Assembly (NCBI GenBank): GCA_963752285.1
Contig: CAVVXN010000005.1
Span: 256,001-320,000 of the forward strand
Reading direction: 5' to 3'
DNA length: 64,000 nt
Source: an uncultured Planctomycetota bacterium
GTDB lineage: Bacteria > Planctomycetota > PLA2 > JAEUHO01
The position numbers and the translations under genes were made by a program. Below, in pieces: positions 41,372 through 64,000 of the stretch; within the stretch, counting starts at the first letter, position 1; each line of letters starts with the position of its first letter. The notes under the pieces are model-generated. The model was given only the letters and a program-made list of their open reading frames with translations. It was not told the origin of the DNA and made no database searches.

Positions 41372-41501
41372 TCGCGCGGAGCGTCGTCGCGACCGCATTG
41401 CGCGCTCGCTCCCGCCTACGTCCTCCAACTTGCGGCGGGTACGATCCGCTCGTCGTCGAGGATCGGCTCCCCTCGGACCCCGATCCGACGGAGGAGGGCC
41501 C

Positions 41502-42920
41502 ATGGCCGAGGACGTACAGGTCGAGTCCCGTCAGAGCATCGATCGCCAGTCGGCGCGCCAGCTCGCGACCACCACGAAGAGCGTGCCCCAGATGGTGGGG
41601 ATCACGCCGCGGCTCCTGCTGCGCCTCCTCCCCTGGGTGCAGGTCGAGTCGGGCACGTACCGCGTGAACCGCCGCCGCGCGGTCCCGCGCGACAGGGGTC
41701 GGCTGCGCGTCGACGTGACGAACGGGAGCGTCCGGCTCTCGGGCTCGGACCTCCAGAACGTCCCGCTGTTCAGGGACACCGACGGGAGGGTCCTCGACCA
41801 GCTCGCGAAGAAGTTCAAGACCGAGGTGTACAAACCCGGCCAGACGGTCGTCCAGGAGGGCGACGCCGCGGACCGGTTCTTCCTGGTCGCGCAGGGCAAG
41901 GTCGAGGCCTCCACGACGGGGCCGCACGGCGAGCGGCTGCGCCTCGGCGTCCTCGGCGACGGCGACTACTGCGGCGAGATGGCGCTCCTCTGCGACAGCC
42001 CGCGCATGGCCACGCTCACGTGTCTCACGCGCGGCGTGCTCCTCGCGCTGCCGAAGGACGAGTTCCAGGCGCTCCTCGGGAAGGCGCCGCGGCTCCAGGA
42101 CGAGCTCCAGGAGGCCGTCGACCGCCGGCTCCGTCTGCTCCGCGAGGTGAACGAGCACGGCGAGCGGCCGGTGCAGGTCGCGGCGAGCCACGACGGCGAG
42201 CCCGACGTGCCCGAGGTGATGCTCGACTACGAGACGGAGCCGCGCGAGTACCCGCTCTTCAGCGCGCAGACGATCGTCCGCGTCCACACGCGCGTCTCCG
42301 ACATCTTCAACCAGCCGATCAACCAGCTCCGCGAGCAGATCCGGCTCGCCATCGAGGGGCTGAAGGAACGGCAGGAGTGGGAGATGGTGAACAACGCGGA
42401 CTTCGGCCTGCTCCACCAGGCCGACCCGCTCATGCGGATCCCGACCCGCAAGGGGCCGCCCACGCCCGACGACCTCGACGAGCTGATCTCGCGCGTGTGG
42501 AAGAAGCCGGCGTACTTCCTGGCCCACCCGCGGGCCATCGCGGCGTTCGGGCGCGAGTGCACGCGGCGCGGCGTCCCGCCGGCGACCGTCAACGTGTTCG
42601 GGAGCCCCTTCCTCACGTGGCGCGGCATCCCGCTCTTTCCCTGCGACAAGGTCGAGGTGAAGAACGACGAGCGCGGCGCGGGCGAGACGAGCATGCTCCT
42701 GATGCGCGTCGGCGAGCAGGAGCAGGGCGTCGTCGGCCTCCACCAGACGGGCATCCCCGGCGAGCAGATGCCGAGCCTCTCCGTCCGCTTCATGGGCATC
42801 AACCAGCGGTCGGTCGCCTCGTACCTGGTCACGAACTACTACTCGGTCGCGGTGCTCACGCCGGACGCGCTGGGCGTGCTCGAAGGCGTCCAGGTGGGGC
42901 ACTACCATGAGTACGCGTAG
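41502..42920 (+). CDS. Family 2B encapsulin shell protein (HK97 fold with inserted cNMP-binding domain)
   Basis: [36 protein letters not shown], cNMP domain (GDYCGEMAL...PRMAT), [55 protein letters not shown]. Confidence 0.93.
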
Positions 42921-45204: not shown

Positions 45205-46927
45205 CGTCGGGTCGCGGCCGCGCCAGGCGCGGTGAGGGGCGGCGGCCGAGCCGGGTCGGAAAGCCCCGGCCGTGACCGCCTCGTCGCTCGCCGCGGTCTC
45301 TCTCCGTGGGCGTCACGCGAGAGAGCGTCGGCCGGCCGGGGGCACGGGCGGCCCCGCCGCCGACGAGGGTCTACCGGCCGCGTCACCCGGAGCGCACCGC
45401 CCTCTACCAGGTGCTCGAGGCACGCTTCGAGGACTACCGGCGGGCGTACCCCGACCGCTTCGAGCCCGAGGCGGGCCCTTGGCGGAAGGAGATCGAGGAG
45501 GCGGTCTACGCGTACCTGGACTGCGGCCGCCTTCACGGGGGCTTTGCCCGCATTAGGTGCCCGAGGTGCGGCGCGGAGCACCTGCTCGCCTTCTCGTGCC
45601 GGACGAGGAACCTGTGTCCGTCGTGCCCGTCGAAGCGCTCGTGGGTCTTCGCGGAGTGGCTGGGGCGAGAGGTGCTGCTGGAGGTCGCGCACCGGCACGT
45701 GGTGTTCACGGTGCCCAAGCGGCTCCGGGGCCTGGTCGCGCGAGACCGGGCGCTCCACGGGGTGATGGCGCGGGCCGCCTGGGAGGTGCTCCGCGAGAGC
45801 CTCTCCGAAGCCGCCTCCGAACGAGAGGGCGCTCCGGGGGCGGTGATCTCGCTCCAGACGTTCGGGTCGTTCGGCGCGAACTTCCATCCCCACCTGCACG
45901 CGATCGTGACGGAGGGGGTGTTCACGAAGGACGGCCGGTTCCATCCCGTGATCTGGCCGACGCCGGCGCGCCTGGAGATGCGGTTTCGCCTACGTTTCCT
46001 GGGGGCGCTGGTGGAGGGGGGGCGGCTGCGGGCCGAGACGCGGTCGCGGTTCCTCGCCTGGTCGAGGTCGGGGTTCTCGGTGGACGCGACGCACCGGGTG
46101 GCGGCCGGCGAACGGGAGCGGGCCGAGCGGCTGGCGCGCTACGCGACGCGGGTGGTGCTGGCGACGGGGAAGGTGAGGCGGCTCGAGGGGGGCCGGGTGC
46201 GGGTCGAGACCCCCCCCGACCCGTGGACGGGTCGGACGTGGCTCGAGCTGGACGAGCTCGAGCTCGTCCACGCAGTGTGCCAGCAGGTGCCGTCCCGGGG
46301 GCGGCACCTCGTCCACTACTACGGGGTGTACGCGAACCGGCTTCGCCGGGCGTTCCGGGCGGCGCGAGCGGCGCGGGCGGGGGAGGAGGCGCCGACGGGT
46401 GGGGGGGCAAAGGGCCGGACGCCGGTCAAGCGGGGTCCGGAGGAGCGGGCCCCGGAGGCGTCGTCCGGGCCGACGTCGAGAGCCGCGTCCCTCAAGCGAC
46501 AGGCGTGGGCGCGGCTCCTGAGGAAGGTGTTCGAGGTGGACCCGCTGCTCTGTCCGCGTTGCCAGGAGACGATGGAGAAAGTGGCGTTGATCCTCGACCC
46601 GAAGACGGTGGAGCGAATCCTCAGCCATCGGCGCGAGCGAGGGCTCGAGTCGGCGTTCGAGGGGCCGCCCGCGAGGGCGCCGCCGGCGGCGCAGGGCGAA
46701 CGAAGAGACTTCGGGAGGAGGAGGGGGGCCGTCGTGTAGAGGCGGGCGGGAGCGGTACGTCCCCGTTGGCCGCCCCGGGCCTTGCGAGAGGGACCCAGAG
46801 TGCCGCGAATCCGGGCATGGGCCCGTACGGCGCAGATCCCGAGCGCGAGGAGGTGCGAAGCGGTCGACACAACCCTTGCGCGACCACGCGACGCCGCCCA
46901 CGACGAGGATTCAATGTCCTATGCGTC
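45205..46927 (+). mobile_element. Full-length IS91/ISCR-type rolling-circle element
   Basis: Transposase plus a right end shared with three other copies; left end inferred from CGTC at 45205 and palindrome 45218-45232. Confidence 0.85.
45306..46739 (+). CDS. IS91-family HUH transposase (ISCR-like, single Tyr)
   Basis: Zn domain CPRCG...CRTRNLCPSC, HRHVVFTVP, HUH motif FHPHLH, RLARYATR, HLVHYYGV, WARLLRKVFEVDPLLCPRC, ARAPP. Confidence 0.93.
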   Translation: MGVTRESVGRPGARAAPPPTRVYRPRHPERTALYQVLEARFEDYRRAYPDRFEPEAGPWRKEIEEAVYAYLDCGRLHGGFARIRCPRCGAEHLLAFSCRTRNLCPSCPSKRSWVFAEWLGREVLLEVAHRHVVFTVPKRLRGLVARDRALHGVMARAAWEVLRESLSEAASEREGAPGAVISLQTFGSFGANFHPHLHAIVTEGVFTKDGRFHPVIWPTPARLEMRFRLRFLGALVEGGRLRAETRSRFLAWSRSGFSVDATHRVAAGERERAERLARYATRVVLATGKVRRLEGGRVRVETPPDPWTGRTWLELDELELVHAVCQQVPSRGRHLVHYYGVYANRLRRAFRAARAARAGEEAPTGGGAKGRTPVKRGPEERAPEASSGPTSRAASLKRQAWARLLRKVFEVDPLLCPRCQETMEKVALILDPKTVERILSHRRERGLESAFEGPPARAPPAAQGERRDFGRRRGAVV

Positions 46928-47348
46928 TGGGCGCGTGGAAGCCACCCCCGCCGCGCCATCCCCCCGCGAGAGGTCCGCCTCCCCGGCCCAAGCCGGTCCG
47001 CGCCGCTGAGATTCGAACGCCATGGACCCCCCCCTCCGGGATCGGTCGCTTCGCGGGACCGCCCCCGGCCGCCTCATTTCGGGTGGATCGGCGCGTGGAC
47101 CGGGCGCCCGGTCGCCCCCATTTCGCGGGGGGAGAAAGGGGTCCGCTCGGACGGATAACGAGACGCAATGCACCTCATCAGCGGATTTGATACGGGATTC
47201 GGACCCCCAGCGGGAAATCCCCCCATGGAAGTACGGGTCGGCTCCCCACCGGGTGGTGCGGGAACGGGGCTCGGTACTGGAGTTGGGCCTGGGTCGTGGC
47301 CTCGCGCGGCCATGACCCGGGTCGCCATGAGAAGGAGAGGAGTACACC

Positions 47349-50300
47349 GTGGCCAAGGTCGTCCGTGTGGCGGGTCGGGCTCTCTGGATCGTTCTGCCGC
47401 TGCTGGCCGTGGGGATCTTCCTGGCGTTCCCCCCGGGCACCGCCCGGGCGAGTTACACGAATCCGTACTGGTCGAGCTCCTCTCCCTCCCCCGAGTGCGG
47501 GTGCAGCGGGTGCGGCTGCGCCCGGCCGCCCGAGTGGTCGCCCGAGGGCGTGTCGTACCGAACGGGAGAGGCACGAATCGGCTTCTTCCTCTTCGACACG
47601 CCCGGGATGGTGGGCCGGCACGACTTCGCGCTCACCTGGCGATCCATGACCAGCGGGGCCACACAGTTCGGAAACGGGATGCTGTTCAACCTCGAGCGCA
47701 CACTCGAGATCACACTCGGGGAGACCATCGTCTATGACCGCTGGCCGAGCGGACGGATCGTCACGTGGTACCTGGACGCCGGCACCTACGTGACGTCGGA
47801 CTGCAGCGTTCACGACACCCTCGAGAAGAACGGCAGCGGGTACTTCGAGATCCACGGCAAGTACAAGGACGTGTGGACGTTCGACGCGAACGGGATGCCG
47901 AGCACCTACGCGGATCGAAACGGGAACGCGCTCACCTTCACCTACAGCACGTATCAACTGACCGGCATCACGGACGACCGGGGGAAGTCCTACACCTTCC
48001 ATCACGACGGCAGCGGGTTCGTCGACTACATCACCGACCCCACGAGCCGGACCTGGAACTTCTCGTACTCGTCTGGGAACCTCGTGGGCATCACCACGCC
48101 GCACACGCCCGACCAGACGAGTGGGATCACGACGACGATCTCCTACGACGGCTCGGACCGCATCGACGCGATCGAAGACGGGAACGAGAACACCGTCTAC
48201 GAGTACGCCTACGTCACGGGGACCGAGAAGATCGACCACGTCACGATCGACGGGGACGACCCGAGCTACGCCTACTACACCGGACGTACCGACGTGACCG
48301 ACCGGCTCGGGAACCTCTGGCGCTACTACTACTCGGGCGCCAACATCACGAAGACCTGCATGTACGTGGACTCGGAAGAGCAGTACGTCACGAACTACAC
48401 CTACAACGGCGACGACCTGATCACCGTCGTCTACCCCCGCGGGAACCGCCTGGACCTCACCTACGACGGGGACTCGAACATCACCGAGCGCCGCCGGAAG
48501 ACGACCGACACCGCGAGCACGAGCGGTACGGACATCGTGGAGAGCTACGCGTACAGCCACAACTTCCTGACCTCGTACACGGACGCCCTCGGAAACGAGA
48601 CCACGTACACGCGAGACACCCCGGGGAACCTGACGCGGATCGACTTCCCGGACGTCACGGACCCGTCCTCCCAGTCCGCCTACAAGACTTGGACGTACAA
48701 CGGCTACGGGCAGGTCACCGCGGCGACCGACGAGGAGGGGACGGAGGTCGACTACTCCTACTTCTCCTCAGGTGACTACGTCGGACTGCTCCACACCGTG
48801 GAGGTGGACCCGAGCGGATTGGACCTGACCACCACCTACGCCTATGACTCGTATCGAAACGTCTCCTCGGTCACCGACCCCAACGGGAACGCCACGACGA
48901 CCACCTGGGACGCGCTACGTCGAAGGACCGAGGTCGACGCGCCCTACCCGCTCTCCTACCAGACGAAGTACAAGTACGACGGGATGGGGAACCTCGTCCA
49001 GGCGGACGTCCAGAACGTCGACAAGGACGGGAACGTCAGCGGGTCGAACCCCTGGTTCACGACGACCTACACGTACACGGCCACGAACCACGTCGCGACG
49101 ATCACCGAGGAGATCGACGCGAGTACGACCCGCACGACCACCGTCGAGTACGACGCGAACGAGAACCGGATCCGCGTGACCAAGCCCGAGGGGAACAAGG
49201 AGAAGTGGGTCTACGACGAGCGAGACCTCGTCTACCAGCACATCCGAGGCGAGACCGACGAAGAGGCCTCGACGGAGACGTTCGCATACGACGACAACGG
49301 GAACCTCGTCACGAGGACCGACGGCCGCTCGCACAGCACGACCTACACGTACGACCTCTTCGACCGGCGGACCCGGACCACGAACGCCCTCTCGCACTAC
49401 GAGACGACCGACTACGACAAGGCCGGGCACGTCACGAAGATCGAGCGGCGGGACTCGGGGGACACCCTGCTCGAGCGCCGCGAGTTCGCCTACGACGAGC
49501 GGGGGCGGCTCTTCGAGGTGACCGACCTCTACAAGGACCCCGGGACGACCTACGACGACGCCGTGACCACGATCGAGCGGCGGAAGACCGGCCAGGTCCT
49601 GGTCGTGACGAACGCGAGGGGGAAGGACACGACCTACGACTTCGACGACGCCGGGCGGATGGTGTCGGTGACGGACGCCATGGGGAACGAGACCGCCTGG
49701 ACCCTGGACGACGCTGGGAACCGGACGGACTGGTCGGTCACGGAGATCGACGGCGAGTCGAGCGTGACGCACCAGTACGAGGCGACGTACGATGTGCTGA
49801 ACCGCATGGCCACCCGGACCGAGATCGACCGCCTGGACGGGGAGCACGAGCTCGACGACGACCTACGGGCGCGACAGCCGGTCGAACCTCGTGTGGATGG
49901 TGAACGCCGAGGGGAACCCGACGCGCTTCACCTTCGACGGCCTGGGCCGGATGACCAAGAAGGAGGTCGCGCTCTCCTACGGCGACCCGATCGAGACGTT
50001 CACGAGCGCGATCGTCACGCAGTGGGGGTTCGACGACAATGACCGGCTCGTGTCCTTCAAGGACGACGCGAGCCACGAGACGACCTGGACGTACGACGCG
50101 CTCGACCGCGCCGCGACGATGACCTACCCGGACTCGACCTACATCACGTACACGCACGACGCGACAGACGACGTGGTCGAGACGGTCGACGCGGCCGGGA
50201 ACGACATCGAGGACACGTTCGACAACCTGAACCGGATGACGGCTCGGAACATCACGCGGGCGGGCTCGTTCATCGGGACGACCTCGGAGTCCTACTCCTA

Positions 50301-52331
50301 CGACGCGTTGAATCGCCTGACGGAGGCCGAGAACAACGACTACACGGTGGACTTCACGTACGGGGTCCGGGGGCTCGACTCGACCGTCTACACGGAGGCC
50401 CAGGAGTACGCATCGGGGACGGCGTACACGAAGACCGTGACGAGCACGTACGACGCGGTCGGGAATCTGAAGTCGCTCGACCTACCCCTCCGGCCTCGCG
50501 CTTGCCGAGAGCTACAACGACGTCGGCGCCCTCTCCTCGATCTCGGACGGGACGAACACGATCGCCTCGTTCACCTACATCGGGACGCGGCCGAAGGTGA
50601 CGACGTTCCAGAACGGCACGACCCAGACGAACACGCTACGGCGGGTTCCGGGAGGAGGTCACGAGCATCGACCACGAGACGTCGAGCCCCTCGACGATCG
50701 TCAGGCTCGACTACGCCTACAACGACGTCCACGACCGGATCTACGAGCGGTACGGCAGCTCGGGCTCGTCCGGGGACGCCTTCGAGTACGACAAGGCGCG
50801 GCGTCTCACGGTCGCCTGGATGGGCTCGGCCTCGCCGGACAGCCCGAGCGGGGCGGCCTACACCAAGAAGATCGAGTACAACTACGACGACGACGGGAAC
50901 AGGACTTCCGTCGTGGTGACCCCGTACGGGCAGTCTCCGGCGACGACCAGCTACAGCACCAACACGCTGAACCAGTACACCGCCGTGGGTGGGGTCAGCC
51001 ACAGCTGGGACGGCAACGGAAACCTCTCGGACGACGGGACCTTGACGTACGAGTACAACTACCGTAATGAGATCTGCCGGGTCAAGAACGGCGGCACGAC
51101 GGTGGCGACCTACAAGTACGACGCGCTGGGCCGACGGGTGGAGAAGGCCGTGACGGGCGGCGTCACCGAGCGCTACGTCTACGCGGGCGTCGAGACGATC
51201 GCGACCTACGACGGCTCGAACACCTGGAAGCAGGACTTCGTGTTCGGCCAGGGGATCGACAACGTCCTGATGCTCGAGCAGGCGGACGTGCTCGACTTCG
51301 ACGCGGACCAGAACACGAGCGAGACGACGCGGTCCTTCTACCACAAGAACGCGCTCGGCTCCGTGATGGCGATCACGGACATGAGCGAGGCGACGGCGGT
51401 GTCGTACCGCTACGATCCGTACGGGACCGTCACGATCACGCGGGGCGGGCAGACGCAGTCGACCGATCCACTCGGGCAGCACTGGGGCTATGCGGGTCGT
51501 TACTACGATGAAGAAACCGGCGGGGTCTATTCCCGGGCGCGAGAATATGGACCTAACCTAGGGCGCTTTGGGCAACGAGACCCGCTGAGGGCAGCAAGCC
51601 TCAAGAATTCGTATTGCTACGGAAGCAATTCGCCAGTATCTCGGTGCGACCCAACCGGGCTGGTCGACGGCCCTGACCACAGGCCAATGCCAGGAACGGA
51701 CCCCGGCAACCCGCCCAGCATACCTCCGTCCGATCCAACGATACCCAACGATCCCGCGGGTTTGCCCGATACCCATTTCCGCGCGCGAAACGATCCAAGA
51801 GTCAAGGTCGGAGGGGCCAAGATCACGGACTTGCTGGGTAACGAGGGCTTCTGTCTCGCGGCGCTTGGGCCGGCCGGTCGTCGCCTAGCATGGGTGCAAT
51901 ACTACAAGTGGGACCTTCTATGGGAGATCATTGGGGAGAACGCGACATCTGTTCCGACGGGCATGCCGGGGCCGCAGAATGATCCTCCGGGGAATTCGGG
52001 CCTCTACCCCAAGCAGAATGGAGCCGGCACACACGCAGTTGGTTTGGGTGACGCGCCGGGCTGGAACATCGGAGGCGAGCCGGCGGCTTGGGCTGCAATG
52101 GTGGCGCATCCGGACATCTTCCTCGAAACAGTGTTCCGGGAGGCAGGCATTTCCCCGGCTCCACCAAGCGGTGTGATTTATGCCGTTTCGACTCTGGACC
52201 TGCGATCCTTTCTGATCGACCTTCAGACCGGACGCGTCCTCGAGAGGGTGCGCACAGTAAAGACGTACATATACAATCTCTTCGGGGATCCTCAATTGAC
52301 CCAGCACGTCCAGGGTCCGGCGCAGTTCTAG
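47349..52331 (+). CDS. Secreted RHS/YD-repeat protein with variable C-terminal extension; three apparent frameshifts (~49857, ~50482, ~50637)
   Basis: Signal peptide; dozens of YD repeats continuing across frames; core end YRYDPYG...GRYYDEETG...RAREY...GRFGQRDP...DPTGL (ends 51662), then ~222 aa of distinct composition. Confidence 0.9.
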
Positions 52332-52348
52332 TGCGTGAGGTGGCGGGC

Positions 52349-53497
52349 ATGAGCTGGCGAGCATCCGCTCTCCTTGTGCTACTGCTTTCGGTCGACAGTA
52401 CTCTACCCCAGTCGACTGCACGCGGAGCAGGCAACAACCGCCTGTCCGATATCGTCGAGATGGTTGACGACCACTTCTTCTTGATGAAGCCAGATAAGAC
52501 AAGATGGGCCCTGGTCTACTCGGAGCAACGATCGTGCAGAGATGGCTTCCTGGGGGGCCTGGGGATCAGGACACACGAAGCGCAGGGTCGGGATGAGGTC
52601 AGGACCTTCGATTGGCGAGAGTTGCGATTTGAGAAGTCCGATGGGTGGGTTGAGGTCGGAGTAGAGGGGATCTTGAGGCGCAGGGTGGTCGAATTGCGGG
52701 GGCAGACAGATGGCGGCAGTGTCGGCAAGATACTGCGGATCCAGCGCGCCAGGATGCCGGACAGGGCATCCCCCGAGCTGGAGGTGGTCCTGCTGCGTGG
52801 TTGCATCGCATGGTTCACTAGACACGCACACGACCAGCGCCGACGGCGCGCGGCCGTGCTTGGCGAAATCGCTGACAGTCTCGATGTCATCGCGGCAGCA
52901 TGCCCCGCGGAGAGGTCGACCCTCCTTGCGGGCCAGCTGGGTGATCTCTGGGCGACAAGCGCGGTGCTTGACTACGCGAGTGAATTGTCCGTGCGTGGAG
53001 GGGTTGGGCAGCGACTGCATTGGTACGTCACAAGTGGCCTTGTGGGTAGTTATGGTCCAGAGGTAAGGAGCCTGGTGGAGAACTGGCCCAGTGAGGTTGA
53101 GTTGGCCGACGCCGGGGGCAGCACGGAGGACCTGGTTAGGTCGCTTTGGAGCCAACATGGATGGTCGGCCGTTACACCAGGGTGGCCGGACGTGTTCCTG
53201 GACGAGCGTCCTGAGAGCCCTGCTATGCGGATCCTGAGGAGGGGGGAAGCAGTACTACCCACTCTGCTTGATTCTCTCAGCAACGCTACTCCGACGCGCA
53301 CCCTAGCACGAGACGCGTACCCTGGTGGGCTGCCAGCGCTCCTGCGAATCGGCGATGTTGTCGGGCAGGTGCTGGAGAAGTTGCTGGATCAACGGCTACC
53401 TCGCCGGAGCCTCGCGGATGAGGGTCTGGAAGCCTGGGCGCGTCGCGTGCGGCGCGCCATTGGATCTCGTGGTGCGCGGCCGAAGCCAGGCGGCTGA
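52349..53497 (+). CDS. Hypothetical exported protein, candidate RHS immunity/partner
   Basis: Starts 17 bp after the RHS stop; signal-like MSWRASALLVLLLSV; same lower-GC style as the RHS tip. Confidence 0.65.
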   Translation: MSWRASALLVLLLSVDSTLPQSTARGAGNNRLSDIVEMVDDHFFLMKPDKTRWALVYSEQRSCRDGFLGGLGIRTHEAQGRDEVRTFDWRELRFEKSDGWVEVGVEGILRRRVVELRGQTDGGSVGKILRIQRARMPDRASPELEVVLLRGCIAWFTRHAHDQRRRRAAVLGEIADSLDVIAAACPAERSTLLAGQLGDLWATSAVLDYASELSVRGGVGQRLHWYVTSGLVGSYGPEVRSLVENWPSEVELADAGGSTEDLVRSLWSQHGWSAVTPGWPDVFLDERPESPAMRILRRGEAVLPTLLDSLSNATPTRTLARDAYPGGLPALLRIGDVVGQVLEKLLDQRLPRRSLADEGLEAWARRVRRAIGSRGARPKPGG

Positions 53498-53509
53498 GCA
53501 AGTGTAACG

Positions 53510-53690
53510 TATCCGTCCCGTCAACCCAGGTAGCGGCACATTGGCCCGCGCCGGACGTCAGCCCGTATCGGGTGCAGCCCGACCGCGGGCCTCCCGCCAT
53601 CCCCGCTGCGTGAGCTTGTGCATGCGCTCCGCGGGGTTGTCGCGGAGCCACCGGGCGGAGACGTGCGCCCTCACGTAGAGGCCCATGAAA
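53510..53690 (-). pseudogene. Possible IS66-family right-end remnant
   Basis: Minus-strand peptide WLRDNPAERMHKLTQRGWREAR resembles IS66 TnpC C-termini, followed by ...GACGGGACGGATAC resembling an IS66 end; recognised from memory only. Confidence 0.4.
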
Positions 53691-54690
53691 TGACCTGGCC
53701 GACGCCGGCGCGCCTGGAGATGCGGTTTCGCCGACGTTTCCTGGGGGCGCTGGTGGAGGGGGGGCGGCTGCGGGCCGAGACGCGGGCGCGGTTCCTCGCC
53801 TGGTCGAGGTCGGGGTTCTCGGTGGACGCGACGCACCGGGTGGCGGCCGGCGAACGGGAGCGGGCCGAGCGGCTGGCGCGCTACGCGACGCGGGTGGTGC
53901 TGGCGACGGGGAAGGTGAGGCGGCTCGAGGGGGGCCGGGTGCGGGTCGAGACCCCCCCCGACCCGTGGACGGGTCGGACGTGGCTCGAGCTGGACGAGCT
54001 CGAGCTCGTCCACGCAGTGTGCCAGCAGGTGCCGTCCCGGGGGCGGCACCTCGTCCACTACTACGGGGTGTACGCGAACCGGCTTCGCCGGGCGTTCCGG
54101 GCGGCGCGAGCGGCGCGAGCGGCGCGGGCGGGGGAGGAGGCGCCGACGGGTGGGGGGGCAGAGGGCCGGACGCCGGTCAAGCGGGGTCCGGAGGAGCGGG
54201 CCCCGGAGGCGTCGTCCGGGCCGACGTCGAGAGCCGCGTCCCTCAAGCGACAGGCGTGGGCGCGGCTCCTGAGGAAGGTGTTCGAGGTGGACCCGCTGCT
54301 CTGTCCGCGTTGCCAGGAGACGATGGAGATCGTGGCGTGGATCCTCGACCCGAAGACGGTGGACCGAATCCTCAGCCATCGGCGCGAGCGAGGGCTCGAG
54401 TCGGCGTTCGAGGGGCCGCCCGCGAGGGCGCCGCCGGCGGCGTAGGGCGAACGAAGAGACTTCGGGAGGAGGAGGGGGGCCGTCGGGAGAGGCCGTCGTG
54501 AGAGGCGGGCGGGAGCGGTACGTCCCCGCTGGACGCCCCGGGCCTTGCGAGAGGGACGCAGAGTGCCGAGAATCCGGGCATGGGCCCGTACGGCGCAGAT
54601 CCCGAGCGCGAGGAGGTGCGAAGCGGTCGACACAACCCTTGCGCGACCACGCGACGCCGCCCACGACGAGGATTCAATGTCCTATGCGTC
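53691..54690 (+). mobile_element. 5'-truncated copy 2 of the IS91/ISCR-type element (1000 bp)
   Basis: Near-identical to 45949-46927; lacks Zn and HUH motifs; same terminus. Confidence 0.95.
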
Positions 54691-54721
54691 GCCCACGACG
54701 AGGATTCAATGTCCAATGCGT
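54691..54721 (+). repeat. Tandem second copy of the terminal 31 bp of the element
   Basis: GCCCACGACGAGGATTCAATGTCCAATGCGT directly follows GCCCACGACGAGGATTCAATGTCCTATGCGTC (1 internal mismatch). Confidence 0.95.
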
Positions 54722-54848
54722 AAGCCGACGTGCTTGCCGCCCATCTCGATCGAGTACCAGAGATCCTGGTCTCCGTGGCGCCGGCAGGCCGGGCGCCGAG
54801 GAACAGGACGAGGAGGGGGAGGGCGGCAGGGAGTAGACGGCGTCTCAT
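54722..54848 (-). pseudogene. N-terminal fragment of a secreted-protein gene cut at the element terminus
   Basis: MRRRLLPAALPLLVLFLGARPAGA-TET... runs into the terminal repeat. Confidence 0.55.
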
Positions 54849-54997
54849 CGGGATCTCCGGTTCCCTCTCGGGGGCGGCGCGCACCCTATCAGGGAGCCGA
54901 CGGGCGGGGTGCGGCCTCGGCCGTCGCGGCGATTGACAGGCGAGCCGGAAACTGGCAAGGTGCTCCTATTCTCGGACGAGTGGAGGAGGTGGATCTG

Positions 54998-55601
54998 TGC
55001 GTGTCTTGTCGAAGCTCGTGGTCGGCGGCATCGGCGTCGCCGGCGTCGTTGGGGTGTCGGGGAGATGAGGCTCGCCGGGGCGGCGAAGGACGCGCCGACC
55101 CGCATGACCTGCAAGGACCTGGGCGAGAAGGGCGCGGCGGAGAACGCCCACGTCCTCCTCACCGACTTCGTCCTGACCTCGGACATCGTGTACAAGACCA
55201 AGCGCACGGCGAGCAGCACGGCGAAGTGGACGAAGGTGTGGGTGCCGGCCGTCCCCTCCGACAGCCCCTACGCGAAGGCGATCGCGGCGGCCGGGGCCGA
55301 CGTCTCGAGCGTTCCCTTCCCCCGCCCGGTGAGAGTGATCGTCGTCAGCGACGACACGATGAACGAGGCGCAGCTCGCAGCGCTCGGCGCCCGGTCGAGC
55401 TCGACGGCATGGTCACGAACCTGATCCATTCCCTCGGCAGCGAGGAGCGAAAGCTCCTCGAGGAAGGCTACGGCGACGTCTCGAACGCGCAGATCTTTCG
55501 AGGTCGGACGCAAACCCGCGAAGACCGTCCTCGCTCTGCTCGCGATCGCCGCGGGCGGCTTGGCCGCGCTCGGCATCCTCGTCTCGTTCTTCCGCAAGTA
55601 G
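54998..55601 (+). pseudogene. Frameshifted hypothetical membrane protein
   Basis: GGAGGAGG RBS, GTG start; protein-like text continues across ~3 frame changes (~55050, ~55395, ~55497) to a C-terminal TM helix ...LAALGILVSFFRK*. Confidence 0.6.
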
Positions 55602-56032
55602 CGTCCCGCCGCGTAGCGTGCTCGGTCGGTCCGGCCGGGGCGGACGCTAGCGCCTTCGGCCTGGGGTGTCCGCGCGCATCATCCACCTTGCGTCGCGGAC
55701 GACGGTCCGAAAGCCACGAAGACCACGACGAACTCGAGTCGTCCCAGGAACATCCCCAGCGTCTCTATGCGTATGCGTACTACCGGATCATCCACCGGGT
55801 GACACAGCAGAGGCCGGAGGGTTGGGAGTGCGTCGCCCCAGATCCCAAGACAGTGGAATGGATCGACTTAGTGACATGTCAGAGGATCAGTTCAAGGCCT
55901 GGAAGAGTGCCAAGGAACTGGTGATACTGGATCGTCGCCTGTAGGAGCTGCATAAGGATTTCATGCGATGCACAGAACGACTCGAGTCTGCCTCTCCGTT
56001 CGTTCCCGCCTTGTGCGGCATCGTCGTCGCTA

Positions 56033-56926
56033 TTGGCTCGCTCCCTGCGGCTTACACTTCCACTCATCTTGGCAGTGGGCGCAGTACAATTACCTGCCTG
56101 CGGTAACAGGGCCGACTCCGGAGAGTCCGGCATGAGTTCTGGCGAGCAGGTTAATGGATCTGCATGCGGCGATCCGTCCGCTGGCCCGGCGCAAGCCACG
56201 ACGGAAGCGATTGGGCAAATCGATCGGAGCCTGGAGCGCGCCGATTCCGATACTCTCATGAAGCCGAGGCGCGTCTGCGGGAACTGGGTGACACGGGATT
56301 CAAGATGGCATGCTCGCACCTGGTCGAGTTGTTCTCGCCTGGGAATCAACTCCGGCGTCAGTACTGGATCGGGTTCTGTGTCGACTGGAGACGGGCCCTG
56401 CCCCTTGAAGTGTATGGCATGCTCGACAAGGTGCAACTTACGTACTACGACTGGGTGAACATCGTGCACACGCTGCCTGGTCACACGAGACGTGGGCTGT
56501 GGACCTGGCACTCCGCCTCCGGCAGCACGAAGCGAGCAGCATTCGGCTTCAGGCGGTGGAAGCCTTGCTGGAGTGTTGCGAGGCGCGAGTGCGCAAGGCG
56601 CTGCTTGAGTCGATTCAGAGTGATCCGTCGCCATCCGTTCGCTGGGAGGCGGCGAAGATCGGACTCAGTCCGTGCTTCGCAGGGACGCCTGAGGATCTGC
56701 ACTTCCTGAGCGTGGCGCTGGATGATCCCGATCCACTTGGGGCCGCCGCGGGCGCCGTGGAGAGCCTCTATGCGGTCGTTCCCCTCTCCTCGGCGCCCCG
56801 GGTACCGCGGATCCAGTTGCGCCGCTCGACGATGATGGGGTGCGTAGGATCTGGGCGAAGTGGCTGCATCAGAACGCAGCCCTACTGAAGTGGGACCCCG
56901 ATCGAAGGAAACTTTACATGCCGTAG
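56033..56926 (+). pseudogene. Frameshifted HEAT-repeat lipoprotein-like gene
   Basis: Lipobox-like LPAC; HEAT-like SIRLQAVEAL, DPSPSVRWEAAK, ALDDPDP spread over several frames; lower GC. Confidence 0.55.
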
Positions 56927-57069
56927 CCGACGTCTGTGACGGAGGACTGCAATCGAACTACGCGTCGCAACACCTGACTGGGACCAGTCAGGGCCAGGAC
57001 GTACGATCAAGCGGATCGCGTGCTTTCCGAGCGGGGGCGGGATCTCGAATCCGCCGAGGTGCTGCTTCT

Positions 57070-58288
57070 CAAGCGGCTCCGGGGCCTGGTCGCGCGAGAC
57101 CGGGCGCTCCACGGGGTGATGGCGCGGGCCGCCTGGGAGGTGCTCCGCGAGAGCCTGTCCGAAGCCGCCTCTGAACGAGAGGGCGCTCCGGGGGCGGTGA
57201 TCTCGCTCCAGACGTTCGGGTCGTTCGGCGCGAACTTCCATCCCCACCTGCACGCGATCGTGACGGAGGGGGTGTTCACGAAGGACGGCCGGTTCCATCC
57301 CGTGATCTGGCCGACGCCGGCGCGCCTGGAGATGCGGTTTCGCCGACGTTTCCTGGGGGCGCTGGTGGAGGCGGGGCGGCTGCGGGCCGAGACGCGGGCG
57401 CGGTTCCTCGCCTGGTCGAGGTCGGGGTTCTCGGTGGACGCGACGCACCGGGTGGCGGCCGGCGAACGGGAGCGGGCCGAGCGGCTGGCGCGCTACGCGA
57501 CGCGGGTGGTGCTGGCGACGGGGAAGGTGAGGCGGCTCGAGGGGGGCCGGGTGCGGGTCGAGACCCCCCCCGACCCGTGGACGGGTCGGACGTGGCTCGA
57601 GCTGGACGAGCTCGAGCTCGTCCACGCAGTGTGCCAGCAGGTGCCGTCCCGGGGGCGGCACCTCGTCCACTACTACGGGGTGTACGCGAACCGGCTTCGC
57701 CGGGCGTTCCGGGCGGCGCGAGCGGCGCGAGGGCGCGGGCGGGGGAGGAGGCGCCGACGGGTGGGGGGGCAGAGGGCCGGACGCCGGTCAAGCGGGGTCC
57801 GGAGGAGCGGGCCCCGGAGGCGTCGTCCGGGCCGACGTCGAGAGCCGCGTCCCTCAAGCGACAGGCGTGGGCGCGGCTCCTGAGGAAGGTGTTCGAGGTG
57901 GACCCGCTGCTCTGTCCGCGTTGCCAGGAGACGATGGAGATCGTGGCGTGGATCCTCGACCCGAAGACGGTGGACCGAATCCTCAGCCATCGGCGCGAGC
58001 GAGGGCTCGAGTCGGCGTTCGAGGGGCCGCCCGCGAGGGCGCCGCCGGCGGCGTAGGTCGAACGAAGAGACTTCGGGAGGAGGAGGGGGGCCGTCGTGAG
58101 AGGCGGGCGGGAGCGGTACGTCCCCGTTGGCCGCCCCGGGCCTTGCGAGAGGGACGCAGAGTGCCGAGAATCCGGGCATGGGCCCGTACGGCGCAGATCC
58201 CGAGCGCGAGGAGGTGCGAAGCGGTCGACACAACCCTTGCGCGACCACGCGACGCCGCCCACGACGAGGATTCAATGTCCTATGCGTC
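57070..58288 (+). mobile_element. 5'-truncated copy 3 of the IS91/ISCR-type element (1219 bp)
   Basis: Near-identical to 45716-46927; retains HUH motif but lacks Zn domain; frameshift near 57730; same terminus. Confidence 0.95.
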
Positions 58289-58409
58289 CGCTCTAAGAGT
58301 CCTTTCGCGCTGCGAATGACTCGGTGGTTCGCCATGCCGCGACACTCTAGCGAATCCCGTCGAGTACTTGACACGCCTGTCCTGCTCGCCCCGACTCCCG
58401 CCGGGTCAG

Positions 58410-58686
58410 GGAAGCCTTCCGAAGAAGGACGCTGGGCAGTTGATGCTGAGTTTGCAGTGGTTCGCAGAAAACTACGGCAACAGAACTGATGCCATTCCGG
58501 TCATCTTCGCAAGGAAGGCCATTGCCGAGCGACGAGCAGACTTCCCGGAGGGGACTCGCGTGGTCACTGACGAGAAGGCCACACTTCTCATGAACGCGCT
58601 AGCGGGACTGTGGAAAGGCCTAGTGAACGAGCCCCTCCTTTACCGCAATGCAAAGCAACTCGGCGAGAGGATCCGCGCACTCACCC
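58410..58686 (+). pseudogene. Internal gene fragment, possibly the C-terminal region of a helicase-like protein
   Basis: KKDAGQLMLSLQWFAENYG...AIPVIF protein-like low-GC fragment with no clear start, cut by the opposing HNH fragment; family assignment weak. Confidence 0.35.
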
Positions 58687-58922
58687 GGGGCCACGCCGAG
58701 GGGGACGACGTGGTCCACCTGCGTAGCGGGCTCGGTCAGCCCCCGGCGCGCGCATTCCCGGCAGAGGGGCTCCTCGCGCAGAACCTGGGCCCGCACGGCC
58801 TGCCAGCCGGCGGACCCGTGGATGCGGGCCACGACGGGGTCGCGGCGGGTGCGGTTGTACTCCGCGTCCGCATGGCGGCGGCTGCGTAGGATCCCAGCGA
58901 GCGTGCGCGGCTTCGAAGGCAT
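58686..58922 (-). pseudogene. Truncated phage-type HNH endonuclease
   Basis: MPSKP...WQAVRAQVLREEPLCRECARRG...ATQVDHVVP; the second half (N..LC..CH) is missing. Confidence 0.75.
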
Positions 58923-59198
58923 CGGTGCCTCGGCTCGCGCCGGCTGGGATCAGCGCCCTGGGAGCCTACCACGCCAGAGCGACGTGCAAACCCAGATGCC
59001 CTGCGGGCCAACCCTCCGAGCCGACATGCGCAGCGCGAACCTCGGCTCCGTTCCATCCGCGGCGCTCCATCCGCAGTGCGGTCAGCGCGGGGCCCTGATC
59101 AGATTGGAGTCGTGCGTGTCGTCGACTCATGGGCCTAAAGCCCATGGCTGAACGGCCTGAGGAGCGTACAATCCCTCCTGTGAATTGGGAGGTACCAC

Positions 59199-59546
59199 AT
59201 GCCGTTGAGAGGAGCCAAGGTCGTCGCTGTCGCGTTCGTCATGGCCGCCGGGACGCTTGCATTCGGAGCGGCCCTCTCCGTGTTGGCGGACTGCCCCAAC
59301 ATGGAGCCCCAGAAGCATCCGACAATCTCTTGGGGGTCGAACGTCAAGTGCGGCGACCCGCCGGAGCAGTGTGGGCAGAACTACTCCATTACCAACAACT
59401 GGGCGTGCGACCTGCCTTCCGACGACCACCGGTGCGTCCCGGGCGAGGTCGTGTTGGTGGAAGTGCACCAGTTCCGCTGTCCCTGCGCCGAGACGGTGAC
59501 CGAGATCAAGGGAGCGGGGCCGACAGCGCAGGTTTGCCCTCCGTAG
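59199..59546 (+). CDS. Small secreted Cys-rich protein (115 aa)
   Basis: GGAGGT RBS, signal peptide ending VLA-D, 8 Cys in the mature part. Confidence 0.7.
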   Translation: MPLRGAKVVAVAFVMAAGTLAFGAALSVLADCPNMEPQKHPTISWGSNVKCGDPPEQCGQNYSITNNWACDLPSDDHRCVPGEVVLVEVHQFRCPCAETVTEIKGAGPTAQVCPP

Positions 59547-59567
59547 CCGTTAGATTGAGGGGCACCG

Positions 59568-60959
59568 ATGCCGCCTCGACCGCTTGCAAGCAGGCGCTCC
59601 CTCCGCGCGGTGGTTCTTGTGGTGGCACTCTCAGCGCTATTGTTCGGTCTCCTGCAGCAGCCAAACCCGGAAGCTCCACCGCCTCCCAACTTGGGTCAGC
59701 GACTCGACGCGGGCACCGGAGAGTCCCCGCGGCTTAGTTCTCCTCCGCGGACGCATCCTCCGGACGTCACCGAGTGCACATGGTTCTCCCGATGGGCATC
59801 ACTGGCACCCGATCCTAGAGAGGTTCCGCGCCTCCTAGTTGCCCTCCGCGCAGATGTTGCGCGCCGCACGCGCTGCCTACCGGACCCTTGGCTTCTACTC
59901 CTGACACGGGCTCGCTGTGACGGCACAGTTGAGATGCCTGCGCGGGAGGTCGATGCGTTGGGCGGGGCGTGGACCGAGCGCGGCCCGCGGAGCGCCGCGT
60001 GGGCTCTCGGCGCGGACACTGAGGGGTGCGTGCTGTCGCTTCTGGCCGAAACAGCGGATGCTGGTTCGCTGGCCCACATTCTCTCTGCATTAGGGGAGGC
60101 ATACTCCGGTGACGGCCTGCTGTCCCCCAACGAACGATTGATCGACCAAGCCGCACGTCTCCTCGCGCTCCGATCGCTCCACGATAGTGGGTACTGGACG
60201 GACTTCTGGAGCGGGATAGAGGACGGCGCGGCCGGAATCCACCTACGCCGCGCGATTTACGAGGCGGCGATTCGAGACGCAGATGAGCCAGCAATCGTCG
60301 ACAGGCTGCACTTTCTTGCTGATCTTGAACAGAGTGTGGGTGGATCCGCCTCGGCGAGTACCGCGCTGGCCGCGATGGGGATGGCCATGCAAGGCAGGTT
60401 AGACGCAAGCGTGATCTCGTCGGGGTTAGCGTGGGATCGAAGCGTCAACTGGAAACGAGCCTTGCTCTGGAGCATCGGCCCCGGGAACGGGTGGCCGGAG
60501 AAGCCCCTCCCATGGGATGGTCGGTCCAGCGAGATGATAGTGCGGTTCGTGCTGTCTGCCCCAGAGTCGCCGGGCGCACGCTACTATCGGCTGGAACTCG
60601 TCGAGCGGTTGTTTGAGGTTCTTGGCCCCATAGACGCAGCTCGGGCATTCACGTCGTATCGAGCGGACCCCTATGCCTCGGTCCCAGAGACAATAGAGTG
60701 GTTGTCTAGTGGCCTGCGATTCACGGGCGCTGAGACGCAGGGCGGCGGTCCGGCGTGGCGGTCGGCGCGCGCAACGGTCGATTCGGCTATTGGGTACATC
60801 TTGGAGGCGAACCGGTGGCGACTTGATTCGGTCATCGTCGCGTTGCTCGACAAGCCAGACTTCAAGCCGGCCGCTGGTGCTCGGGAGGCGTTGGTGCGCC
60901 TGCTCGATCGCGACCTGGACCTATTGGAACCCGGCACGCGGGCGCGCCTCGCTCACTGA
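59568..60959 (+). CDS. Hypothetical membrane-anchored helical protein (463 aa)
   Basis: Long ORF 21 bp downstream of the Cys-rich gene; N-terminal TM; lower GC. Confidence 0.65.
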   Translation: MPPRPLASRRSLRAVVLVVALSALLFGLLQQPNPEAPPPPNLGQRLDAGTGESPRLSSPPRTHPPDVTECTWFSRWASLAPDPREVPRLLVALRADVARRTRCLPDPWLLLLTRARCDGTVEMPAREVDALGGAWTERGPRSAAWALGADTEGCVLSLLAETADAGSLAHILSALGEAYSGDGLLSPNERLIDQAARLLALRSLHDSGYWTDFWSGIEDGAAGIHLRRAIYEAAIRDADEPAIVDRLHFLADLEQSVGGSASASTALAAMGMAMQGRLDASVISSGLAWDRSVNWKRALLWSIGPGNGWPEKPLPWDGRSSEMIVRFVLSAPESPGARYYRLELVERLFEVLGPIDAARAFTSYRADPYASVPETIEWLSSGLRFTGAETQGGGPAWRSARATVDSAIGYILEANRWRLDSVIVALLDKPDFKPAAGAREALVRLLDRDLDLLEPGTRARLAH

Positions 60960-61483
60960 GAGCCCAGGTAGTGGTCATCGGCCTCGAGTCCAGAGTAGAC
61001 GCCGCGCGCGTAGAGCTCGCGGTTGCGGTGGACCCAGCGGTGCTGCTTCTCAGTTCGAACGGGACATTTCGTTCGAGTTCTCGGCAGCCGGTCGGTGCGG
61101 GATGCGGGCTGCGGCCCGCGTGAGCGGAGTACCCACGAAGGTGCCGGGGGTGTGGCGGCGCGACAGGGGGGCAAAGAGCGAGGCGGGTCAGGCGCAGACG
61201 ACGCATCGTCGCGCGCGGTTCCCGGCGAGGCGTCGAGCTCGGGCGTCGGCGCGGTGGGCGGCGAGGCGGTCGGGCACGCCTAACGTACACCGCCGCCCCC
61301 GAATGCGAGGTCGATACTTCGGTCGCTGGGGGAGTGAGGAGAGCAAGCCGGCAGGAGAACCCAGGCTCCTCCACGGTGCCGCGCAGATCGACCCGCTGAC
61401 GGCTCGTCTCGGCGACGGCGCGGCGTGCGCGGCGCGTCGCATCCCGGGAGACATCGTTGGGGGACTCACCAAGCGCAGCGGAC

Positions 61484-61620
61484 ACGGGGAGGCGCTCGAC
61501 GCCGTCTCCCGCGAGATCCAGGTCTCGACTGCCCGCCTGGCCCAGTGGCGGGACGATTTCCTCGCCGCGGGCCAGGTCGGCCTGAAGAGCCGTGAGCCCG
61601 ACGCTCGGGATGAGGAGATC
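61484..61620 (+). pseudogene. Transposase HTH remnant (IS3-like OrfA)
   Basis: GEALDAVSREIQVSTARLAQWRDDFLAAGQVGLKSREPDARDEEI. Confidence 0.6.
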
Positions 61621-61903
61621 GGCTCGGTTCTTCGCCACTCCAGGGGTGGTTTAGACCTCGTCTTCGACCCAAGGGCTGGCGCTGACTTGCCGAACGTCCA
61701 CCACCTCGATCCCTGCTCGAAGTGATGCGGTAGGCCTTCGGCACAACCGCACCGCCCCGCGCTCTATCCGCGAGGGAGCAGGCAGTGTCTGGTCCAGGTC
61801 GCATTCGAGCCGCCCGACTACCGCGCCAGCATCGCAATCGCTGCCGCCGCCGCCACCCCAACGACCCAGGCCCCGCCGGTCCCGGAGAGGCGGGGTTGTC
61901 ACT

Positions 61904-62504
61904 TGTACGCGAACCGGCTTCGCCGGGCGTTCCGGGCGGCGCGAGCGGCGCGGGCGGGGGAGGAGGCGCCGACGGGTGGGGGGGCAGAGGGCCGGACGCC
62001 GGTCAAGCGGGGTCCGGAGGAGCGGGCCCCGGAGGCGTCGTCCGGGCCGACGTCGAGAGCCGCGTCCCTCAAGCGACAGGCGTGGGCGCGGATCCTGAGG
62101 AAGGTGTTCGAGGTGGACCCGCTGCTCTGTCCGCGTTGCCAGGAGACGATGGAGATCGTGGCGTTGATCCTCGACCCGAAAACGGTGGACCGAATCCTCA
62201 GCCATCGGCGCGAGCGAGGGCTCGAGTCGGCGTTCGAGGGGCCGCCCGCGAGGGCGCCGCCGGCGGCGTAGGGCGAACGAAGAGACTTCGGGAGGAGGAG
62301 AGGGGCCGTCGTGTGGAGGCGGGCGGGAGCGGTACGTCCCCGTTGGCCGCCCCGGGCCTTGCGAGAGGGACCCAGAGTGCCGAGAATCCGGGCATGGGCC
62401 CGTACGGCGCAGATCCCGAGCGCGAGGAGGTGCGAAGCGGTCGACACAACCCTTGCGCGACCACGCGACGCCGCCCACGACGAGGATTCAATGTCCTATG
62501 CGTC
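61904..62504 (+). mobile_element. 5'-truncated copy 4 of the IS91/ISCR-type element (601 bp)
   Basis: Near-identical to 46327-46927; same terminus. Confidence 0.95.
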
Positions 62505-62777
62505 GTCCCCGGGGAGGACCTCGACGGGGCGGGGGCCGGTCCGCGCGGCGCCGCGCCGTCGGTCGCCTCGCCCGCGCGCCCCGAGGCGGGCCTCCTCGAC
62601 GGACACGACCTCCCGCCCGGCGTCCCGCCGCCCGCGAGCGCCGAGGACGCCGCCGCGCTCCGGCTCGCGTTCGACCTCCAGCGGCGGATCGAGGGGCCGA
62701 GCACGGCGCTCCAGGGCGAGCCGATCCACCAGGGCGAGCGCGTCGGCGCGGCGCCGCACCTCCCGACGAGCGACGCG
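62505..62777 (+). repeat. Diverged internal fragment of the cysteine desulfurase gene (43555-43827)
   Basis: Ungapped manual alignment: 22 mismatches in 273 bp (~92%). Confidence 0.95.
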
Positions 62778-62797
62778 TGGACCCGTGCGGAGCGCGG

Positions 62798-64000
62798 TTA
62801 CTTGCCCAACGAGCTGCTGAGCCTCACCCTGATCACGTCGGCGCCTCGTTCCGGCGAGAGGGCCGACGCGTACCAGGCTTCCTCTGCTCCTTGTGCCCGC
62901 CCGGCAACGGAAACCGGAAATCGATCAGGATGGATCCACACGGTCAGGACCCGTCCAAAGAGTAGTGCGCCTCCGCCACAGCCCGCTCCCTTGCGATCGC
63001 TGACTTGGACCAAGAGCCATGGAGACTCGGAGCCCATCTCTCGAGGCGGCGACACCTCCAATCGGATCGCCTGCTCGAAGCGAAGGGAGAGCTCGAGCTC
63101 GCGGCCCGCGACCGCCGGCACCGCCGGCGCATCGAGGTGCCCGAGGCGTGATGCGGTTTCGGGCGGGGGGCGCGCCGAGGCCATGAGGTCGCTGCCGGTC
63201 GGGATGCCGTCGAAACGACACGTGCCGGAGTCGTCCGTAACTCCATTCCAGGGGAAGGACCCCTCCCGTCCCCGGAGGATTACGAGGGCGCCGCTCGCCG
63301 GCTCGCCGGAGGGGCCGTAGACCCTGACGCGGATCGCGGCGCACCCGGGAGCGCGCCGGGCGACCACGCGCACCTGTCCCGCTCCATCGGAGGGCACTCT
63401 CGCTTCTCCCTGCCAAGGCGACGGCGAACGCAGGATCTCTCCCCATGCGACCTGCATTCGTTCGCTCCGGAGCACGAGCCGGCACGCACTGGGCGTCCCG
63501 GCCGGACAGCCGAGGTCGAAGACCCCGCTCCCAGTCGTCCACGTCGAGGCGATGCGTTCTCCGTCCGCCTGAACCAAGTCCACCCCGACCCCTGCGACTC
63601 GCCCCCCCCCCTCGGTCACGACCAGCCCGCGAATCGAACGCCGGGGACGTAACGTGACCTCGATCTCCTGCTTGCCGCGCGCCTGTGATGCAGCAAGCTC
63701 CTCTCGCATCCAGCGCCCGCCGTCCGTGGCGCCGGGATCGACGATGACTAGGCGCGAGTCGTCGGCGAGAAAGACTCGGGCCCGACCCAGAAGGTCTGTC
63801 GTGACGCCGTAGATGCCTGCGCTCGTCTGCACGGCCACCGTGCACTCCGGGAGTGGTTCCCCGATCGAGGTCAGTACGCGCACATCGATCGGCTTCCCTG
63901 GCGTGGTACAGGTTCGCAACTCGACTCTGGCGACTTGCCCCGAGCGGACGTGGACCTCCTGCGCCACGTAGGGCGCACCGGGAACACGCGCAACGACGCG
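62798..64000 (-). CDS. Carboxypeptidase-regulatory-like repeat protein (N-terminus beyond the right edge)
   Basis: VRVLTSIGEPLP, IRGLVVTEGGGRVAGV, VRVYGPSGEPASGA, TDDSGTCRFDGIP; frame open to the window edge. Confidence 0.7.
   Translation of the reverse strand, partial: RVVARVPGAPYVAQEVHVRSGQVARVELRTCTTPGKPIDVRVLTSIGEPLPECTVAVQTSAGIYGVTTDLLGRARVFLADDSRLVIVDPGATDGGRWMREELAASQARGKQEIEVTLRPRRSIRGLVVTEGGGRVAGVGVDLVQADGERIASTWTTGSGVFDLGCPAGTPSACRLVLRSERMQVAWGEILRSPSPWQGEARVPSDGAGQVRVVARRAPGCAAIRVRVYGPSGEPASGALVILRGREGSFPWNGVTDDSGTCRFDGIPTGSDLMASARPPPETASRLGHLDAPAVPAVAGRELELSLRFEQAIRLEVSPPREMGSESPWLLVQVSDRKGAGCGGGALLFGRVLTVWIHPDRFPVSVAGRAQGAEEAWYASALSPERGADVIRVRLSSSLGK

Follow-up and report, generated by a model that had tools for sequence, protein, structure and literature searches.

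A 64,000-nucleotide (nt) stretch of DNA from an uncultured Planctomycetota bacterium (the window; G000:C5:256001-320000, G000 being the genome that holds it and C5 its contig) carries one complete insertion sequence (IS) of the IS91 family, followed by a row of truncated copies that share its orientation, retain its origin end and separate blocks of unrelated DNA. On balance, we read this array as the trail of aborted or prematurely ended rolling-circle transpositions of one IS91-family element, with no dedicated capture device behind it. IS91/ISCR elements move resistance and virulence genes, and the debate about how they do so still relies on a small number of laboratory systems. The present array and a second one in a related genome are natural arrays from uncultured bacteria which together comprise 10 truncated copies, all with the origin end and all in a single orientation, and would constitute a readable record of the errors of rolling-circle transposition. 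In both arrays the origin end is exact without exception, the other end in no case, and both supply concrete junctions for asking whether transfer terminates at a second origin.

The right end of the complete element recurs as an exact 30-mer at 46898-46927, 54661-54690, 58259-58288 and 62475-62504, where 0 matches are expected in shuffled sequence; a fifth match with two mismatches lies at 54693-54722. An earlier note on this DNA, made without database searches, had described identical right ends at 46927, 54690, 58288 and 62504, left ends that differ (matching 45949, 45716 and 46327) and unrelated DNA after each right end. All of this was observed again: the copies begin at 53691, 57070 and 61904 (Table 1), and unrelated DNA directly follows every right end, the right junctions being exact. 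The note had also suggested a search for units beyond 64 kb, and a whole-genome BLAST search found three more co-oriented fragments, ending on the + strand at C5:324442, 329633 and 335917 (window-equivalent 68442, 73633 and 79917). Their left ends match 46626, 46201 and 46581, and the second of them (copy 6) has an internal deletion. In total, 35 kb contain one full copy, six co-oriented 5'-truncated copies and a 32-nt mini-copy, the truncated repeats comprising 299-1220 bp of IS sequence.

Genome-wide, few copies lie elsewhere, consistent with the proposed clustering behind one complete copy. A search with a 29-mer of the end, allowing up to 3 mismatches, gave eight forward matches and one reverse match in G000 and none across 60 relatives. 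Outside the array, G000 holds a small minus-strand cluster at C5:907638-912372, consisting of an origin-bearing copy (C5:911488-912372, split by a 677-bp insertion) and an internal-only piece (C5:907638-907806), as well as, at C2:86313, the left end of a related element (79% identical). With this C2 relative excluded, the tally for G000 is eight truncated copies with the origin end, one internal piece and no copy with only the left end. The cumulative GC (guanine plus cytosine) skew of C5 peaks and turns at ~820 kb, and the origin ends lie on the + strand before this point and on the - strand after it. The + array (301-336 kb) and the minus cluster (907-912 kb) thus face the same way with respect to replication in its inferred direction, which for two loci is only a hint.

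The IS91/ISCR-type assignment made earlier is borne out by Pfam. Both PF14319 (Zn_Tnp_IS91, E 2.9e-18) and PF04986 (Y2_Tnp, E 3.2e-20) match the open reading frame (ORF) at 45306-46739 past their cut-offs, and the ORF is an IS91-family HUH transposase, tnpA. Its translation reads HPHLHAIV and HYYGVYAN, which we take to be the HUH motif and the paired catalytic tyrosines. The full copy carries CAG at 46692 where the six fragments and the copy in G001, a genome of the same genus, carry a stop codon (TAG/TGA); owing to this TAG-to-CAG stop loss, the tnpA ORF of the full copy is 15 amino acids (aa) longer than the ancestral one. At the left end, homology to the G001 copy and to the C2 relative begins at 45262-45271 and a hairpin is predicted across 45241-45281, whereas the right end is set by seven copies. 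That right end, 188 bp past the tnpA stop codon, is the oriIS side, as the note had proposed; in an IS91-type element oriIS lies ~167 bp after the coding sequence (PMC5737581). The hairpin at the origin end folds with a z of -2.1, and 4 of 200 shuffles fold equally well. As expected for the IS91/ISCR family, no inverted repeat pairs the two ends of the element.

Targets of IS91, IS801 and IS1294 are of the CTTG/GTTC type. No such tetranucleotide, a criterion of the IS91/ISCR family, stands beside the origin end here. In G000 the four bases after ...CCTATGCGT are CTGG, CGCC, AAGC, CCGC, CGTC, GTGC, GGGG and AGTC, and in G009, a genome from another genus of the same family, those after ...CCTATGCAT are ACCC, CATC, TCTT, CATC and AGGC; neither set has a consensus. 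A GTNN target beside an end placed at ...CCTATGC fitted G000 and was dropped, as the G009 ends read ...GCAT and the junction of a paralogous gene cuts after CAT. We place the end after ...CCTATGCGT/CCTATGCAT because this paralog junction supports it: in G009, homology to a paralogous CIA30-domain gene on contig C7 starts at the first base past ...CCTATGCAT of origin end 3, which fixes the element end there.

The copies fall into groups. Copies 2 and 3 have an 8-9-bp insertion and other variants in common, copies 4, 5 and 7 are 99.0-99.4% alike, and both groups share variants that are absent from the full copy. The latter has eight private states, including the stop loss at 46692, which are derived wherever the outgroup aligns. 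The fragments therefore stem from an older master or from each other, or have been homogenised by gene conversion. In addition, a fragment of the upstream desulfurase gene that adjoins origin end 4 is 9% diverged, suggesting that the array is not young.

The layout recurs in the second genus. Selected stretches of G009 contigs, including C5, C7 and C8, were covered. On C8, a full element at ~272444-274233, whose transposase is 64% identical to that of G000, is followed by co-oriented truncated copies that end at 277758, 287949, 294660 and 300552 and whose left ends match 272719, 272901, 273595 and 273695; the third truncated copy in the row is interrupted by an ISL3 element. More origin-keeping fragments lie on C5 and C7, so that seven distinct truncated copies in these stretches keep the origin end and one keeps only the left end. 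Since a related element in another genus has the same layout, the array is not an accident. C5 and C7 were rejected as independent contexts, being 99% identical over ~10 kb and hence duplicates or haplotypes. In G009, copies 2 and 3 are already truncated although their identity to the master is 99.3-100%. Copy 3 matches the full copy with 100% identity across 1333 bp, yet it is bordered by unrelated DNA to the left and by an interrupted gene to the right. The ~570 bp needed for a whole CIA30 gene occur nowhere in C8:264-320 kb, not even to the left of this copy. Considering that copy 3 is identical to the master and yet truncated, truncation and loss of target must have occurred at or soon after the copying event.

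A phylum-wide protein search scored 4 candidates per genome, a resolution too low to reveal arrays. A protein-based search returned 22 metagenome contigs, mostly of 1-7 kb (with one locus of 11.4 kb, from a 16.9-kb contig), and three genome contigs, too short or too few to reveal arrays. The exact origin-end pattern had 0 matches in JGI metagenomes.

Taking both genomes together, 15 of the 16 end-bearing truncated copies keep the origin end and one keeps only the left end; one further copy is internal. This asymmetry, observed directly, corresponds by our own arithmetic to a one-sided binomial p of ~3e-4, which overstates the evidence since the copies are kin and not independent. Such a bias also bears on a different history, in which repeated full-length insertions lost their 5' parts to ordinary deletions, IS insertions and recombination, while origin ends survived by chance or by selection (e.g. 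against extra transposase genes). A retrospective IS801 analysis traced most natural fragments to reorganisations (PMC3189936), and decay after insertion is visible here in the deletion within copy 6, the piece at C5:907638-907806, the 677-bp insertion and the ISL3 elements in G009 origin ends. Nevertheless, we hold this history to be unlikely: 15 of 16 truncated copies retain one particular end, whereas in Pseudomonas syringae only 5 of 17 fragments have an intact right end and no left end (PMC3189936), and the near-identical G009 copies 2 and 3 are already truncated.

The left junctions are of another kind than the right ones. All 6 + 4 array left ends differ, and the 10 array left ends and three further G009 left ends have neither a shared motif nor microhomology. 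A pseudo-terIS motif, looked for at the left ends of both genomes, was not found. Flanks are directly seen to be non-contiguous: origin end 7 interrupts a member, lacking its left 200 bp, of an HNH-like gene family; copy 6 is flanked on the left by an interrupted IstB gene; and origin end 4 is joined to desulfurase sequence originating 1.7 kb upstream of the complete element. Two indels fall exactly at an origin end: a contig of short-read run X1 differs by 30 nt after 58287, and G009 C7 and C5 differ by ~107 bp.

From these junctions we infer an order of strand transfers and a way in which left junctions could form. The transposase would nick the origin end, and this end would be the first to be joined, with precision, to a target close by. 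Transfer would frequently halt before the far (terIS) end; the broken end would then be joined illegitimately, and target DNA on that side would be lost. After each event the copy would be exact at its origin end, truncated at random at its 5' end and flanked by non-contiguous DNA. Events would accumulate locally and in a single orientation, downstream of the master and within a non-essential decaying island, and the fragments themselves may be copied with transposase supplied in trans. There is precedent for several of these steps. Termination often fails in the IS91 family. Of the IS801 insertions trapped in P. syringae, 26% were right-end fragments from one-ended transposition (PMC3189936). 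Any fragment bearing ori801 is potentially mobilisable, plasmids with up to eight ori801 exist, and one-ended IS801 events create deletions that begin at the origin end (PMC6354349).

Several points weigh against an origin of the array in failed transposition. The left ends of the array and of the G009 copies lack the target-like tetranucleotide that starts IS801 miniatures; premature termination made by the transposase is therefore insufficient, and an additional illegitimate joining must be assumed. Non-contiguous flanks fit equally well with units that were imported along with their cargo. A junction such as that between origin end 4 and upstream DNA would be expected from one-ended transposition or from a circle, and favours stacking of units for at least that one. 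Furthermore, copy 2 lies upstream of its closest relative, copy 3, an order that a simple downstream-only hop does not predict. Finally, independent contigs bridge 1 of the 13 window junctions, and they do so with a 30-nt difference.

This last point also touches the integrity of the sequence. G000 (4.64 Mb, 73% GC) is 89% complete in five contigs, from which an assembly from a metagenome is probable, and an assembler might have chained alternative haplotypes through the shared repeat, all the more so as the one origin/cargo junction that independent contigs bridge differs by 30 nt. The best short-read run contained 0.16 of the sampled words, and most array junctions lie outside the coverage of read contigs. 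However, every copy carries particular variants and meets unique DNA at a left junction that no other copy shares, features that chaining cannot create, and the same layout is present in a separate genome. An artefact is thus very improbable. In run X4, one low-depth contig joins 45256, approximately the left end of the element, to 61962 (equivalent to 46385) with 12 extra letters, and may represent a strain with a truncated first copy.

The earlier note had proposed that the stretches from origin to origin are integron-like cassettes. In such a scheme they would be non-autonomous mobile units: the transposase would start at one origin, terminate at the next and release a circle, which would reinsert at the nick of the resident origin, units being stacked as in an integron. 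If so, environmental bacteria would possess in this row an HUH-driven locus that grows by gene accretion, its two-origin units would behave as a two-origin rolling-circle plasmid, and the point at which origin end 4 meets upstream desulfurase sequence would be the fossil of an accretion event. The scheme has attractions. Direct origins bound the units, which in formal terms may therefore be mobilised in trans. There are seven direct origin ends, each with a hairpin, and a transposase in trans together with an origin suffices for IS91 and IS801. In both arrays the full copy is leftmost; the position of the 32-nt mini-copy coincides exactly with an origin end; sequence from the upstream side of the full copy adjoins origin end 4; and flanks are non-contiguous.

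The junctions and the cargo speak otherwise. No unit and no cargo/fragment junction occurs twice in G000, G001 or G009: 6 of 6 left junctions are crossed by no other G000 match, and no unit is found in G001 or G009. All 6 + 4 left ends differ, without motif or microhomology, and stacking leaves the origin of each truncated junction unexplained. Copy 3 of G009, a fresh copy of the full element, lacks the 5' part and the upstream flank of the latter; bordered by unrelated DNA and an interrupted gene despite full identity, it was not made by one-ended transposition from that copy. The cargo amounts to 3.5-10 kb per unit, has genes on both strands and is rich in other IS elements and gene fragments, among them a complete IS66, an IstB fragment and IS66 scraps. 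At three G009 origin ends, a 1317-bp block had looked like a cassette and like a sign of insertion at the origin; it is in fact an ISL3 element, bearing inverted repeats and accompanied by an 8-bp duplication. For these reasons the cassette claim is not upheld, and stacking at the resident origin appears to us improbable. As the note had stated, there is no tyrosine integrase in the array: PF00589 has no match in C5:256-352 kb (12 matches in G000, the nearest on C5 at 1.098 Mb), and the only enzyme gene beside the array is the HUH transposase. An array of orphan polymorphic-toxin/RHS tips, with a conserved core and variable tips, was considered and rejected, because the repeat encodes the 3' part of the transposase and RHS is cargo of unit 1 only.

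The ISL3 element sits at one position inside the IS91 origin end at G009 C8:293330-294645, C5:26371-27687 and C11:1996-3311, with the duplication CAAATGCC each time, and either targets CAAATGCC or was copied together with the origin end.

The array occupies a variable island. A type 2A encapsulin gene (41430-42920) and the cysteine desulfurase gene downstream of it are syntenic with G001, the desulfurase being the final syntenic gene before the island, and the next anchor is at C5:348285 in G000 and C10:241492 in G001. Between these shared anchors lie ~47 kb in G000 and ~20 kb in G001 of DNA that is unrelated, which makes the island variable, as the note had expected of relatives; the G001 island also holds an internal IS91 piece. 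Cargo is lower in GC (0.59-0.69) than the repeat copies and the upstream operon (0.70-0.78), again as described earlier. With regard to the types of cargo that had been listed, RHS was confirmed by Pfam, and a signal-peptide-like N-terminus on the RHS protein, the cysteine-rich ORF and the hydrophobic N-terminus of the 463-aa ORF were read by eye in the translations, whereas Pfam found no HEAT repeats in the window cargo ORFs. The remaining array cargo, besides the IS66 and IstB sequences, includes genes for a CarboxypepD_reg protein, a TPR protein and a Ser/Thr kinase, as well as a DUF1579 gene.

The RHS gene spans three overlapping frames. Short-read contigs of runs X1 and X3 have 1 nt fewer at 49856, and the first frame break may thus be an assembly error, with the RHS gene intact. 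Its stretch 49739-51499 and C1:18808-20565 share 94.7% identity. A second, different IS91-family transposase (C1:8118-9654, Y2_Tnp E 3.9e-65), which immediately follows a Phage_integrase match, has next to it RHS fragments (C1:7-21 kb) with 92-95% identity to the window RHS cargo. Other G000 members of the HNH-like family lie on C5 at 335918-336240 and from 1079067, 2156117, 2165984, 2177419 and 2183607, with a conserved flank; two members of the family sit <400 bp from IS91 origin ends. The 115-aa and 463-aa ORFs have no Pfam match. Their module is also present on G001 C4 with 78% identity, where, together with the HNH-like gene, it occupies C4:45797-49050, and a 51-bp IS91 piece lies 77 bp off.

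Table 1. Features of the window on and around the complete element (window coordinates)
Feature	Position	Strand	Basis and remarks
Cysteine desulfurase (Aminotran_5), long N-terminal extension	42907..45198	+	Pfam; synteny with G001:C10
Complete IS91-family element	45255..46927	+	Left end approximate (45240-45271), right end exact
tnpA, 477 aa, Zn-binding and Y2 HUH domains	45306..46739	+	Pfam, translation, polarised variants
oriIS-side end, ...GATTCAATGTCCTATGCGT(C), imperfect subterminal palindrome	46860..46927	+	Repeated ends, fold prediction
Cargo 1, RHS-repeat gene, three overlapping frames	47349..52331 (47349-50042, 49891-50919, 50820-52331)	+	Pfam
Truncated copy 2 (matches 45949-46927)	53691..54690	+	Repeat comparison, BLAST; partial Y2_Tnp match
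32-nt tandem mini-copy of origin end, 2 mismatches	54691..54722	+	Repeat comparison
Truncated copy 3 (matches 45716-46927)	57070..58288	+	Repeat comparison, BLAST
Cargo, 100-aa HNH-like gene, family of ~8 copies	58620..58922	-	HNH motif read by eye, not Pfam
Cargo, 115-aa Cys-rich ORF (8 Cys) and 463-aa ORF, hydrophobic N-termini	59199..60959	+	Translations by eye
Truncated copy 4 (matches 46327-46927)	61904..62504	+	Repeat comparison, BLAST
Desulfurase fragment, 285 bp	62501..62785	+	91% copy of codons 43551-43835; begins directly at origin end 4

Among known systems, IS801 of P. syringae plasmids comes close to what we describe. It too moves by rolling-circle transposition and leaves fragments with an exact origin end and a variable other end that can be mobilised in trans; up to eight origins occur per replicon, beside genes of secreted or virulence type, and deletions are linked to the origin (PMC3189936, PMC6354349). 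Experimentally trapped IS801 fragments start at a target-like tetranucleotide, however, and the present ones do not. The natural IS801 fragments are mixed (5 of 17 origin-only) and, in the portions of the sources used here, are not described as a co-oriented row behind a single full copy. The present array is chromosomal and belongs to an uncultured high-GC host, whereas the comparison is with plasmids. ISCR2 and ISCR1 units such as ISCR2-tet(X)-ISCR2 likewise consist of direct repeats, complete or partial, that separate unrelated gene blocks, and these layouts have been attributed to rolling-circle transposition and recombination (PMC7722449, PMC8239412). The ISCR units are found again and again, in many replicons, and their selected genes are intact; the units described here are unique, and other IS elements or interrupted genes make up much of their cargo. 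IS801 fragments with an origin have been described already, as have partial ISCR2 units, and no new kind of gene-capture system is revealed by the array.

The likeness to an integron (IntI, attI, attC) lies in unrelated gene blocks, a recurring separator and one adjacent enzyme gene. Unlike an integron, the array has no tyrosine recombinase in or near it, its repeat is transposase gene sequence and not attC, and its units, 3.6-7.8 kb long, contain several genes, on both strands, together with other IS elements and some junk, with no short site that bounds single-gene cassettes. The Helitrons of eukaryotes are also HUH rolling-circle elements with one essential end, frequent truncation and capture of host DNA, but they belong to another family, and the end that is essential is a different one.

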